Shown in pieces: positions 19,021 through 21,341 of a stretch of 64,000 nt of DNA (its first letter is position 1; each line of letters opens with the position of its first letter). The notes under the pieces were generated by a model that saw only the letters and a list, made by a program, of their open reading frames with translations, was not told the DNA's origin and made no database searches. The stretch comes from Escherichia coli (GTDB lineage: Bacteria; Pseudomonadota; Gammaproteobacteria; Enterobacterales; Enterobacteriaceae). Position numbers and translations under genes: made by a program. Location of the stretch: the NCBI RefSeq assembly GCF_044647545.1, contig NZ_CP172818.1; one strand, written 5' to 3'.

Positions 19021-19054
19021 CCTGTATACACGCGCCGGGATATTCTACTCCTGA
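18107..19054 (+). pseudogene. Orphan Rhs core 3' fragment with no N-terminus; its C-terminal tip is truncated after 10 codons
   Basis: 315-aa ORF nearly identical to RhsC residues about 925-1225, ending [10 protein letters not shown] then [10 protein letters not shown]; an H-repeat remnant abuts it. Confidence 0.85.
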
Positions 19055-19195
19055 CTATTTGTGTCATCATTTCCGGTGCCGAAGGTTGAGAGGATCTTGA
19101 AAATTATGGCGAGACGCATCACTATTTTCTGAAGCGATATGGTGATTACGAGAATGGAATAACCAGAATGGAATCCCAGGGAAAGATCACGTAAC
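19036..19195 (+). mobile_element. H-repeat (ISAs1-family) remnant, internally deleted and diverged
   Basis: About 75% similarity to the intact H-rpt ORF region encoding [19 protein letters not shown]...QYGDFENG, then jumps to a 3'-end-like sequence ending cgtaa. Confidence 0.5.
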
Positions 19196-20461
19196 GCTGC
19201 ATTTTTTGTACTAAACAATTCGCATTTTATGTTTAAAAATTGAGATATTCCTCATTACCTGAAGCTGTTTTTTATTGCTTATACATGATCAAATACTCCT
19301 TACATAATTAAGGAGAACAAAATGGAACTTAAAAAATTGATGGAACATATTTCTATTATCCCCGATTACAGACAAGCCTGGAAAGTGGAACATAAATTAT
19401 CGGACATTCTACTGTTGACTATTTGTGCCGTTATTTCTGGTGCAGAAGGCTGGGAAGATATAGAGGATTTTGGGGAAACACATCTCGATTTTTTGAAGCA
19501 ATATGGTGATTTTGAAAATGGTATTCCTGTTCACGATACCATTGCCAGAGTTGTATCCTGTATCAGTCCTGCAAAATTTCACGAGTGCTTTATTAACTGG
19601 ATGCGTGACTGCCATTCTTCAGATGATAAAGGCGTCATTGCAATTGATGGAAAAACGCTCCGGCACTCTTATGACAAGAGTCGCCGCAGGGGAGCGATTC
19701 ATGTCATTAGTGCGTTCTCAACAATGCACAGTCTGGTCATCGGACAGATCAAGACGGATGAGAAATCCAATGAGATTACAGCTATCCCAGAACTTCTTAA
19801 CATGCTGGATATTAAAGGAAAAATCATCACAACTGATGCGATGGGTTGCCAGAAAGATATTGCAGAGAAGATACAAAAACAGGGAGGTGATTATTTATTC
19901 GCTGTAAAAGGAAATCAGGGGCGGCTTAATAAAGCCTTTGAGGAAAAATTTCCACTGAAAGAATTAAATAATCCAGAGCATGACAGTTACGCAATGAGTG
20001 AAAAGAGTCACGGCAGAGAAGAAATCCGTCTTCACATTGTTTGCGATGTCCCTGATGAACTTATTGATTTCACGTTTGAATGGAAAGGTCTGAAGAAATT
20101 ATGCGTGGCAGTCTCCTTTCGGTCAATAATAGCAGAACAAAAGAAAGAGCCAGAAATGACGGTCAGATATTATATCAGTTCTGCTGATTTAACCGCAGAG
20201 AAGTTCGCCACAGCAATCCGAAACCACTGGCACGTGGAGAATAAGCTGCACTGGCGTCTGGACGTGGTAATGAATGAAGACGACTGCAAAATAAGAAGAG
20301 GAAACGCCGCAGAATTATTTTCAGGGATACGGCACATCGCTATTAATATTTTAACGAATGATAAGGTATTCAAGGCAGGGTTAAGACGTAAGATGCGAAA
20401 AGCTGCCATGGACAGAAACTATCTCGCGTCAGTCCTTGCGGGGAGCGGGCTTTCGTAATCT
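19196..20461 (+). mobile_element. H-repeat element (ISAs1 family), apparently intact
   Basis: About 1.26 kb unit with its leader sequence (ttttgtactaaa...aggagaacaaaATG) repeated at 20471 onward; contains the 378-aa transposase ORF. Confidence 0.8.
19322..20458 (+). CDS. ISAs1-family transposase (H repeat-associated protein), 378 aa
   Basis: Intact [53 protein letters not shown]... with a good Shine-Dalgarno; resembles the YbfL/YhhI/YdcC family. Confidence 0.9.
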
Positions 20462-21341
20462 TTCCCTGCTTTTTGTACTAAATAATTCGCATTTTATGTT
20501 TAAAAATTGAGATATTCCTCATTACCTGAAGCTGTTTTTTATTGCTTATACATGATCAAATACTCCTTACATAATTAAGGAGAACAAAATGGTACTTAAA
20601 AAATTGATAGAACATATTTCTATTATCCCCGATTACAGACAAGCCTGGAAAGTGGAACATAAATTATCGGATATTCTACTGTTGACTATTTGTGCCGTTA
20701 TTTCTGGTGCAGAAGGCTGGGAAGATATAGAGGATTTTGGGGAAACACATCTCGATTTTTTGAAGCAATATGGTATTTTGAAAATGTATTCCTTTCACGA
20801 TACCATTGCCAGAGTTGTATCCTGTATCAGTCCTGCAAAATTTCACGAGTGCTTTATTAACTGGATGCGTACTGCCATTCTTCAGATGATAAAAGTTATT
20901 GCAATTGATGGAAAAACGCTCCGGCACTCTTATGACAAGAGTCGCCGCAGGGGAGCGATTCATGTCATTAGTGCGTTCTCAACAATGCACAGTCTTCATC
21001 GGAAGATCAGGAGGATGAGAAATCTAATGAGATTACAGCTATCCCTGAACTTCTTTACATGTTGGACATTAAAGGAAAAATCATCACAACTGATGCGATG
21101 GTTGCCAGAAAGATATTGCAGAGAAGATACAAAAACAGGATATTATTTATTCGCTGAAAATGAAACCAGGGGCGCTAAATAAAGCCTTCGAGAAAAATTT
21201 CCGCTGAAAGAATTAAATAATCCAGAGCATGACATTACGCAATGAGTGAAAAGAGTCACGGCAGAGAAGAAATCCGTCTTCACATTGTTTGCGATGTCCC
21301 TGATGAACTTATTGATTTCACGTTTGAATGGAAAGGAGCAG
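20462..21341 (+). mobile_element. Third tandem H-repeat copy, degenerate: many small internal deletions and a truncated 3' end
   Basis: Same leader and N-terminal coding sequence as the intact copy, then repeated 1-4 bp deletions break the frame (ORF pieces 20589-21182 and 21242-21460); homology ends near gaatggaaagg at about 21340. Confidence 0.8.
20589..21337 (+). pseudogene. Frameshifted ISAs1-family transposase pseudogene
   Basis: Translation follows the intact transposase in blocks separated by frameshifts. Confidence 0.75.

Follow-up and report, generated by a model that had tools for sequence, protein, structure and literature searches.

Does an intact transposase gene standing beside broken copies of the same element mark a place where a genome is being rearranged, or do the copies owe their state to another cause? 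The question is raised by the DNA between ybfA and ybgA in a 64,000-nt stretch of Escherichia coli sequence (hereafter, the window), where an earlier note had recognized three tandem H-repeat copies, read them as three stages of natural decay, and proposed the transposase of the middle copy as a plausible driver of rearrangement. Judging from sequence comparisons, the state of the three copies is probably no record of decay at this locus, and we propose instead that the window is a K-12-templated (reference-guided) consensus.

A K-12-type H-repeat array closes an Rhs element

Positions 19038–21393 of the window hold an H-repeat fragment of 139 bp (C1), a complete copy of 1,292 bp (C2) and a broken copy (C3). 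The three tandem H-repeat/ISAs1-family copies are thus present essentially where they had been placed; the coordinates agree closely, and the similarity is far above chance. The start of the array is borne out; its end, formerly put at 21341, is not, a relic of C3 running on to 21393. The copies constitute an H-repeat (H-rpt/ISEc1, ISAs1 family) array closing an RhsC-type Rhs element between ybfA and ybgA. This Rhs element occupies 13375–21393 (8,019 bp; plus strand, as for all features below) and is made up of a leader, a 1,394-aa Rhs ORF (13480–17664), an orphan core extension (18107–19037) and the H-repeat array, parts whose order is colinear with K-12 rhsC-ybfB-ybfO-...-ybfQ-ybfL-ybfD and on to ybgA.

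The array follows the Rhs core at the same site as the K-12 RhsC array (ybfA...ybgA-phr), and its units come in the same order of fragment, full-length and internally deleted copy. As in K-12 ybfQ-ybfL-ybfD, a fragment lies against the left inverted repeat of the full-length unit, and a third unit follows head-to-tail, devoid of its left inverted repeat and of ~313 bp of its interior. The position of the C1/C2 junction, the sequence of the C2/C3 junction (CCCTG/CTTTTTGTAC) and the internal deletion point of C3 are likewise those of the ybfQ/ybfL/ybfD architecture. Because the layout equals that of the K-12 array, the array is already known; descriptions of the RhsC H-repeat array, with its ISAs1-family transposase, date back to the 1990s. 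Zhao, Sandt, Feulner, Vlazny, Gray and Hill, in J Bacteriol in 1993, reportedly characterized RhsC as carrying ‘three tandem copies of H-rpt, all defective’. According to the literature on ybfL/ybfD, the ybfL-ybfD interval of MG1655 serves as a neutral integration site.

The middle copy is structurally complete

C2 (19177–20468), the counterpart of K-12 ybfL, is a complete 1,292-bp, ISEc1-like H-repeat of the ISAs1 family. Its inverted repeats, CAGGGAAAGATCACGTAA (19177–19194) and TTTCGTAATCTTTCCCTG (20451–20468), are 18 nt long and 89% complementary, and the end motif has only two matches in the 64 kb, both of them C2 ends. The ends starting CAGGG and the length within ~1.2–1.5 kb are those of the ISAs1 family (ISfinder; NF033564), whose members likewise combine a size of ~1.3 kb and inverted repeats starting CAGGG with a single DDE ORF composed of PF13808 and PF01609.

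Other ISEc1/H-rpt copies were compared from strain 2013C-4465 (a single intact copy, before ybgA), from the ST648 yibF-yibH locus and from a VgrG-linked pair. These copies are 1,290–1,291 bp long, a length that C2 matches to within 1 bp, have CAGGGAAAGAT... ends and a 1,137-bp ORF, and always lie downstream of Rhs cores; they are solitary or parted by unrelated DNA, whereas the window copies abut head-to-tail. No more than a handful of sites separate C2 from the first (‘a’) member of the VgrG-linked pair, and the two encode an identical protein. It is a mosaic of two natural alleles, the body being of the type of the VgrG-linked copies (L006/L007, a locus that we take to be RhsE) and the left 26 bp of the yibF/K-12 type.

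The 378-aa ISAs1-family DDE transposase of C2 is encoded by ORF-H (19322–20458, including the stop). It scores 417.2 bits against NF033564, for which the cut-off is 70 bits, over profile positions 1–314 of 314, and contains PF13808 (E = 7e-34) and PF01609 (E = 8.7e-31), both above gathering thresholds. The earlier description of a structurally complete copy with an ISAs1-family ORF therefore stands. That note had also named missing catalytic residues as a reason to doubt the ORF; in an alignment of 61 sequences, with relatives 35–54% identical, ORF-H retains all 16 of the 16 columns that are invariant across the family members. These include D109 (AIDGKT), D172 (TTDAMG) and E306 (HWHVEN), and further G110, K111, K196, N198, R232, R236, H302, W303, H310 and D314. 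Conservation and motif spacing suggest that D109, D172 and E306 form the catalytic triad. A sequence search found no solved structure for the transposase, and the exact ORF-H protein is present in 699 blocks of a public collection.

The middle ORF of K-12 is interrupted internally at codon 17, where CAA has become a TAA stop, whereas the C2 ORF is open. In nature, an intact middle transposase is found in the RhsC arrays of strains E54 and E1316 (ISEc1 + ybfD + ybfQ annotations), and an intact C2 is therefore not suspicious by itself. Upstream of the ORF, a hairpin at 19296–19315 (CUCCUUA-N6-UAAGGAG; folding energy −8 kcal/mol, z = −2.6) pairs the Shine-Dalgarno sequence of ORF-H, and a promoter scan places the −10 hexamer of a weak promoter-like site (19280–19308) in the hairpin loop. 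The structure is repeated in C3 (20563–20582). By pairing the ribosome-binding site, the hairpin would be expected to damp translation of read-through transcripts. The ORF-H protein, if expressed, could act on the C2 ends only, because C1 and C3 have no usable ends.

No target-site duplication was found around C2, whose flanks, AGAATGGAATCC and CTTTTTGTACTA, have no common repeat, and such duplications are seen in none of eight complete copies (C2 and seven copies in K-12, L004, L006, L008, L019 and L020). ISAs1-family members that transpose make 8–10-bp target duplications, and in this respect C2 and the seven other E. coli copies differ from the family. The lack of a duplication argues against recent classical insertion, not against ISAs1-family membership. 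Of the marks of insertion that the earlier note had mentioned, the 18-nt terminal inverted repeats were thus recovered on C2, but target-site duplications were not.

These data bear on the suggestion that the C2 transposase is active, has built or remodels the tandem array, and drives rearrangement at the locus. In its favour, C2 has both inverted repeats and none of the family-invariant residues is missing from its ORF, and mobility has been captured for some members of the ISAs1 family, ISPmar4 among them (PMC3281130). We nevertheless regard it as very improbable: beside the absence of target-site duplications from all eight complete copies, transposition of H-rpt has not been observed (PMC3032704), the junctions are common to K-12 and hence inherited rather than new, C1 and C3 offer no ends to a transposase, and the open ORF is probably an allele imported from another locus. 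A role for the transposase as a driver of rearrangement, as advanced earlier, finds no support in a layout shared with K-12.

The first and third copies

C1 (19038–19176), the counterpart of K-12 ybfQ, had been taken for a remnant left by internal deletion. It comes instead from the interior of a diverged H-repeat paralogue and has neither end; the CAGGGAAAGATCACG behind it belongs to C2, as its left inverted repeat. C1 covers the N-terminal region of the transposase, codons about 28–79, with an in-frame stop, and is 78% identical to C2 over 123 nt. With no ends, only ~50 codons and a stop in frame, it does not qualify as an element. The yibF-yibH Rhs locus of strain ST648 holds a ‘transposase family protein’ remnant to which positions 19038–19160 are 100% identical, and 19159–19172 form an additional imperfect 14-bp tandem copy. 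C1 stops at the element position where K-12 C1 also stops, immediately before the C2 left inverted repeat. In K-12, however, C1 still has a left inverted repeat and a leader and shares ~93% identity with the family, whereas the 78%-identical paralogue fragment of the window adjoins a truncated core extension, and 1,383 bp of K-12 (ybfO tip, ybfC, left C1) are absent. The replacement of C1 by a 22%-diverged sequence and the removal of 1,383 bp would need local reassembly, beyond SNP calling, a point that speaks against a consensus origin.

C3, the counterpart of K-12 ybfD, spans 20469–21393 if its right-end relic is included. The body (20469–21336) begins at element position 26, without the first 25 bp of the element and the left inverted repeat that they include, and keeps the leader and the start codon. 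It stops at the K-12-type internal deletion point GAATGGAAAGG, where ~313 bp are lost as in ybfD. The leader, the start and the many short deletions ascribed to C3 are thus confirmed, but not a simple truncation at the 3' end, since what follows GAATGGAAAGG is an internal deletion of ~313 bp, beyond which the copy continues to 21393. C3 does not qualify as an element either, given that it has no left and no recognisable right inverted repeat and that the E306 region is absent; its longest ORF (197 aa) matches PF13808 only.

Over its first 300 nt, C3 is 99% identical to C2, and the start-to-start offset of the two copies then falls stepwise from 1267 to 1248; the shrinking offset therefore indicates many short deletions in C3. 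The nearest natural copy (copy b of L004, 8223–9108) differs from C3 by 3 mismatches and 16 gap openings. All 16 events fall in a micro-deletion zone (20775–21235), where 18 bases (15 G, 3 C) are lost relative to this copy, with zero insertions and zero substitutions. Relative to K-12 C3, 15 G are found among 19 deleted bases (p = 3.7e-7, binomial; the parent stretch is 23% G). The 3 substitutions and 16 gap events of C3 compare with 662 and 18 among natural copies (Fisher p = 1.5e-20), so that the ratio of indels to substitutions departs ~200-fold from the family norm. K-12 ybfD keeps its frame over 253 codons, whereas C3 of the window has 16–17 extra micro-deletions and an eroded right end. 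The first two deletion clusters remove 3 bases each and restore the reading frame; such clusters of −3 could hint at selection, which would count against a consensus origin, or could be due to chance.

The window alternates between ST648 and K-12 sequence

The flanks of the Rhs element are those of ST648, with 100% identity over 1376–13374 and 99.95% over 21394–30186 (one 4-bp gap). In ST648 the ybfA–ybgA site is empty, with 1 base only precisely where the 8-kb Rhs element sits in the window, and it is likewise empty in 7/7 other listed places from strains that share the YbgA protein. The corresponding window junctions are GGTTTT/ATATAAATTTTCC and CCACATC/TTTTTTTCGG. Within the element, 13479–19030 matches with 100% identity an Rhs element that other genomes carry at the rpmE-metJ locus.

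Sequence identical to ST648, in runs as long as 11,999 bp, covers 1376–13374, 21394–30186 (with the 4-bp gap), most of 35555–47171, and 53440–57403. Exact-identity runs to K-12 are confined to 30182–35422 (5,241 bp) and 47172–53110 (5,939 bp). The latter correspond to the islands ybgOPQD and mngRAB; ST648 has different islands at both places, these ST648-only islands, of GntR/TRAP and hut/glm type, are missing from the window, and the switches between K-12 and ST648 fall at island borders. With exact matches alternating in this way, the window does not have the single coherent ancestry of a genuine one-organism locus. The mosaic and the empty ST648 site fit a K-12-templated consensus. Reference-guided consensus genomes, as a class of artefact, have sample alleles in the backbone and keep the template where reads are absent, and the window resembles them in the loss of sample-only islands, in paralogous reads on template repeats, and in ragged indels at structural differences. 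It differs from them in base-specific deletions that are not attributable to a particular tool.

Deletion-only zones lie at K-12/ST648 discordances

The right-end relic and junction of C3 (21337–21393; 57 nt) is nearly T-free. It is an exact subsequence (57/57; null 44 ± 2.4) of the 99-nt right end plus flank of K-12 C3, relative to which 26/28 T are lost, and an end-motif scan found no recognisable right inverted repeat in it. The window is not generally marked by such T-free runs; longer ones occur only in the Ala/Lys/Glu-rich domain of tolA, where they are natural. At the opposite edge of the element, comparison with the leader common to K-12 RhsC and the ST648 yibF-locus Rhs revealed a deletion-only zone in the Rhs leader (13379–13432), with 11 micro-deletions removing 13 bases in 55 bp, nearly all A/G; it is the same phenomenon as the C3 deletions. 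Altogether, deletion-only zones at K-12/ST648 discordances are found at 13379–13432, 21337–21393, 23355, 40737–40745, 44980–44984 and 47175, and the zones at the two edges of the element end exactly at the boundaries of the ST648 empty site (13374/13375 and 21393/21394).

Some features of these zones weigh against a consensus origin: G/C is lost in one zone and T in another, a pattern that points to no particular tool, and 20775–21235 has no obvious structural discordance. Forced read alignment, in which the edge deletions would be pulled towards the opposite ST648 flank, was considered and set aside as proof of the mechanism, the values (z = 1.4 and 1.6) not being significant; this weak approach to the opposite flank also tells against a consensus. 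Sanger dye dropouts, nanopore or PacBio consensus errors and flow-based undercalls were rejected as well, for they misfit the exact empty-site stops beside a perfect backbone.

It is unlikely, in our judgement, that the array is really at the locus and that the micro-deletions are base-calling dropouts in a poorly covered C3 and poorly covered element edges. Deletion-only, base-specific errors do resemble channel or base-caller dropouts, repeats are the hardest sequences to polish, and the deletion density climbs towards the right end. However, read quality would not respect the exact empty-site boundaries at which the zones end, C2 and the Rhs core are free of such zones although no less repetitive, and the K-12-identical islands and missing ST648 islands are left unexplained.

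Origin of the state of the copies

Neither the 21330–21400 segment nor the C3 sequence was found in any of 5,426 complete E. coli genomes, in which the best matches to the array are K-12-type arrays (93%) and single ISEc1 copies (~95.7%). For the left junction, no complete E. coli genome exceeds 96.1% identity, and the match at that level is split in two. The GTDB species representatives lack a 48-mer taken from the right end of C3, the JGI metagenome contigs lack a 40-mer spanning the first deletion cluster of C3, and no exact-protein record was found for the 197-aa C3 ORF, a 315-aa core-extension fusion or a 495-aa Phr.

A faithful read-out would require an ST648-related strain in which RhsC was homogenised by gene conversion with other Rhs loci while natural decay removed many small pieces from C3 and the element edges. 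Rhs elements are known to be mosaic and inter-locus gene conversion is plausible, the layout of the array is natural, arrays with an intact middle copy exist in nature, and two C3 deletion clusters restore the frame. We still hold this to be improbable, because C3 shows 3 substitutions against 16 deletions where natural copies show 662 against 18, and because the losses are base-specific (18/18 G or C in one zone, 26/28 T in the other). It also leaves unexplained the two zero-difference K-12 islands in a zero-difference ST648 backbone with crossovers at island borders, and the scars at unrelated intergenic sites, and there is no second occurrence in the 5,426 genomes or the metagenome collection. 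A real, localised and base-specific micro-deletion process, previously undescribed in E. coli, that takes out single G/C bases or T-containing runs and hardly ever substitutes a base, seems to us extremely improbable. Such a process would act on a dead IS copy, both edges of the Rhs element and a few intergenic hairpins, and it needs a natural strain that also carries the K-12-identical islands.

We consider it likely that the copies of this RhsC-type H-repeat array owe their state to a K-12-templated consensus of an ST648-like isolate. The backbone of such a consensus would carry ST648-like sample alleles, and K-12 template sequence would have been kept at the ybgOPQD and mngRAB islands. A third K-12-only island, RhsC, would have been overwritten by paralogous Rhs and H-repeat sequence from other loci of the strain, giving the K-12 layout with foreign alleles: an open middle ORF, a 78%-identical first fragment, and the allele of another locus in C3. 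Deletion-only scars would be left at each disagreement between template and sample. The ybfA–ybgA site of the real isolate is probably empty. Three stages of natural decay, as formerly read from the copies, give way to a paralogue remnant (C1), a K-12 architecture, and deletions at places where K-12 and ST648 disagree.

Biologically, the array adds little, and there is no sign of H-repeat activity here. Both the intact transposase beside apparently ‘decaying’ copies and the many short deletions of the third copy find their best explanation in the provenance of the sequence as a K-12-templated mosaic, and inferences of pseudogenes or decay drawn from this window, including those of a frameshifted phr and a truncated Rhs tip, are unsafe.

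Organization of the H-repeat array

The Rhs element between ybfA and ybgA-phr closes with three H-repeat units arranged head-to-tail at 19038-21393, much as the earlier note had outlined, except that the array ends at 21393 and not at 21341. The first unit (C1, 19038-19176) is a 139-bp fragment with 78% identity to the matching part of the middle unit; it is an internal fragment without ends rather than an internally deleted element. The middle unit (C2, 19177-20468; 1,292 bp) is bounded by 18-nt inverted repeats, CAGGGAAAGATCACGTAA and TTTCGTAATCTTTCCCTG, and the end motif matches twice in the whole window, both times at these repeats, which supply the terminal inverted repeats that had been sought. 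The third unit (C3) starts at 20469, corresponding to element position 26, abuts the right repeat of C2 and has no left repeat of its own. It matches C2 at 99% across 300 nt, after which short deletions pile up until the match ends at GAATGGAAAGG (21336), and a shortened relic of the right end (21337-21393) continues the unit to 21393. The short deletions described earlier for C3 are thus present, but C3 is not simply truncated at its 3' end: it has lost an internal segment, and its right end is eroded.

The C1/C2 junction contains an imperfect 14-bp tandem duplication (19145-19172; ATTACGAGAATGGA / ATAACCAGAATGGA) that is missing from the otherwise identical remnant in the E. coli strain ST648; its second unit appears to blend K-12 and ST648 junction sequences. 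Because the right end of C3 is shortened, a 234-aa GTG-initiated ORF (21246-21950) begins inside C3 and reads on, in the same frame, into ybgA, whose normal start is at 21442. This ORF is probably without meaning and could mislead gene callers.

The feature is the RhsC H-rpt array, which is already known: Zhao et al. (J Bacteriol 1993) reportedly described three tandem, defective H-rpt copies there. K-12 has the same arrangement, in which ybfQ is an N-terminal fragment, ybfL an annotated ISAs1 pseudogene with an internal stop, and ybfD lacks the C-terminus. Three features are common to K-12 and the window: where C1 abuts the left repeat of C2, the sequence of the C2/C3 junction, and the point of internal deletion in C3. 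Other lineages carry one intact ISEc1 at the ybfA-ybgA site, and in some K-12-type arrays an intact ISEc1 transposase is annotated (H14/H15, from a search of complete genomes).

The C2 transposase

The 378-aa ORF of C2 (19322-20458) matches PF13808 and PF01609 and scores 417 bits against NCBIfam NF033564 "ISAs1 family transposase" (cut-off, 70 bits), which bears out the earlier family assignment. Among 1.84 billion representative proteins searched, 30,542 relatives were found. When the protein was aligned with 60 full-length relatives (35-54% identity), 16 columns were invariant, and C2 carries the family residue at all 16, including Asp109, Asp172 and Glu306; the loss of catalytic residues that the earlier note had named as a refutation is not observed. 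Judged by the motifs AIDGKT, TTDAMG and HWHVEN, these three residues would form the DDE triad. Public genomes frequently encode precisely this protein (699 blocks); in the places shown, it lies at a VgrG-linked locus that we take to be RhsE. The Shine-Dalgarno sequence of the ORF is paired in a hairpin with a 7-bp stem (-8 kcal/mol, z = -2.6), whose loop holds the -10 hexamer of a weak promoter-like site; by analogy with other insertion sequences, the hairpin may damp translation of read-through transcripts.

The earlier note saw in this intact transposase a plausible driver of rearrangement. That idea is not supported, and an active element remodelling the locus is very unlikely: the target-site duplications sought were not found, with no flanking direct repeat at any of eight complete copies (five loci), and H-rpt, while counted among the insertion sequences, has not been observed to transpose (PMC3032704).

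Deletion-only divergence

Natural H-repeat copies compared with each other (28 pairs) differ by 662 substitutions and 18 gap events. The closest natural copy to C3, which is the second one at the VgrG-linked locus in L004 (a locus in another public genome), is separated from it by 3 substitutions but 16 gap events (Fisher p = 1.5e-20). These counts argue against a fully real locus undergoing natural decay, which we regard as very unlikely, and the proposed gradient of decay across the three copies is not supported, since C3 diverges almost entirely by deletions, unlike natural copies. Deletions are the sole differences across 20775-21235, and they took out 15 G and 3 C (18 bases in all). The relic at 21337-21393 (57 nt) forms an exact subsequence of the 99-nt right end of K-12 C3 (longest common subsequence 57/57; null, 44 +/- 2.4), 26 of 28 T residues having been lost. 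On the opposite side of the Rhs element, 11 micro-deletions of A or G fall within 55 bp of its conserved leader. A test of whether the edge deletions converge on the opposing flank gave no significant result. A genuine array affected by local read errors is likewise unlikely.

Two C3 deletion clusters have each lost exactly 3 bases, which might be due to chance. The longest T-free runs of the window (up to 85 nt; 58750-59210) fall within the part of tolA for its Ala/Lys/Glu-rich domain, are natural and have no connection with the T-depleted end of C3.

Probable paralogous origin of the sequence

Across 13479-19030 the sequence matches an Rhs element at the rpmE-metJ locus (rpmE/priA to metJ) of other E. 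coli genomes with 100% identity. C1 matches, also at 100%, a remnant that adjoins an intact H-repeat at the yibF-yibH Rhs locus of ST648. At the presumed RhsE locus, the first copy has the allele seen in the body of C2 and the second that seen in C3; the left 26 bp of C2 are of yibF/K-12 type. The junctions so formed and the deletion-bearing sequences occur in none of 5,426 complete E. coli genomes, and the probes tried were absent from species-representative genomes and metagenome contigs.

The rpmE-metJ-like stretch comprises a 1,394-aa Rhs protein (13480-17664), a downstream small ORF and an orphan core extension, with only ~96% identity to K-12 RhsC. The core extension is cut 9 nt past the conserved GGWNLYT motif and joined to C1 via 7 bp (CGCGCCG), giving a 315-aa ORF (18107-19054) without a toxin tip. 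Compared with K-12, the window lacks 1,383 bp here, which in K-12 hold the tip of ybfO, ybfC and the left portion of ybfQ.

A mosaic of K-12 and ST648

Compared with ST648, the window shows 0 differences in 11,999 bp at 1376-13374, and 0 mismatches and one 4-bp gap at 21394-30186, so that identity extends right up to the Rhs element on both sides. In ST648 itself the site is empty (ybfA adjoins ybgA), and the same holds for every one of the 7 further sites shown from genomes that have the same YbgA protein. Two islands match K-12 byte for byte, the ybgOPQD fimbrial island (30182-35422) and the mngRAB island (47172-53110); precisely at these positions ST648 harbours other islands. In the interval separating the two, identity switches back to ST648; 35555-47171 and 53440-57403 are byte-identical or nearly so to ST648. 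Small deletion-only scars mark other structural differences between the two strains (23355, 40737-40745, 44980-44984 and 47175).

At 23355, where K-12 has ~112 bp extra, phr has lost 4 bp compared with ST648 (AGCGAGGAAAGGAGTCT to AGCGAGGAAGTCT) and with them its usual stop codon, and the resulting 3' frameshift extends the photolyase ORF (21947-23434) from 472 to 495 aa into the convergent dtpD; the 495-aa product has no record in the public protein collection. The other three scars, likewise relative to ST648, are intergenic, at sites where K-12 has an additional 131 bp and 196 bp, and the GCCGGGGAAATCCCCCGGC hairpin after sdhB is gone at 40737-40745. In L012, a locus of another genome (GCA_030995285.1, CP121673.1), each of kdpD, kdpB, phr, dtpD and abrB is broken up into multiple short gene calls, as is usual for long-read-only assemblies rich in indels; this has no relation to the window.

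The alternation would be explained directly if the window were a K-12-templated consensus of an ST648-like isolate, and judging from these sequence comparisons we propose that this probably accounts for the state of the array. In such a consensus: (i) the shared backbone would adopt the alleles of the sample, (ii) template-only islands would remain as K-12, and (iii) sample-only islands would be dropped. RhsC would be the third K-12-only island, in which the template was replaced by paralogous sequence from elsewhere in the sample, so that the K-12 layout was kept and the apparent decay is overlay. To arise by natural recombination, by comparison, the pattern would take six crossovers, each placed exactly at an island border and none bringing donor flank. 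The useful result is a warning that the window is a mosaic of two strains.
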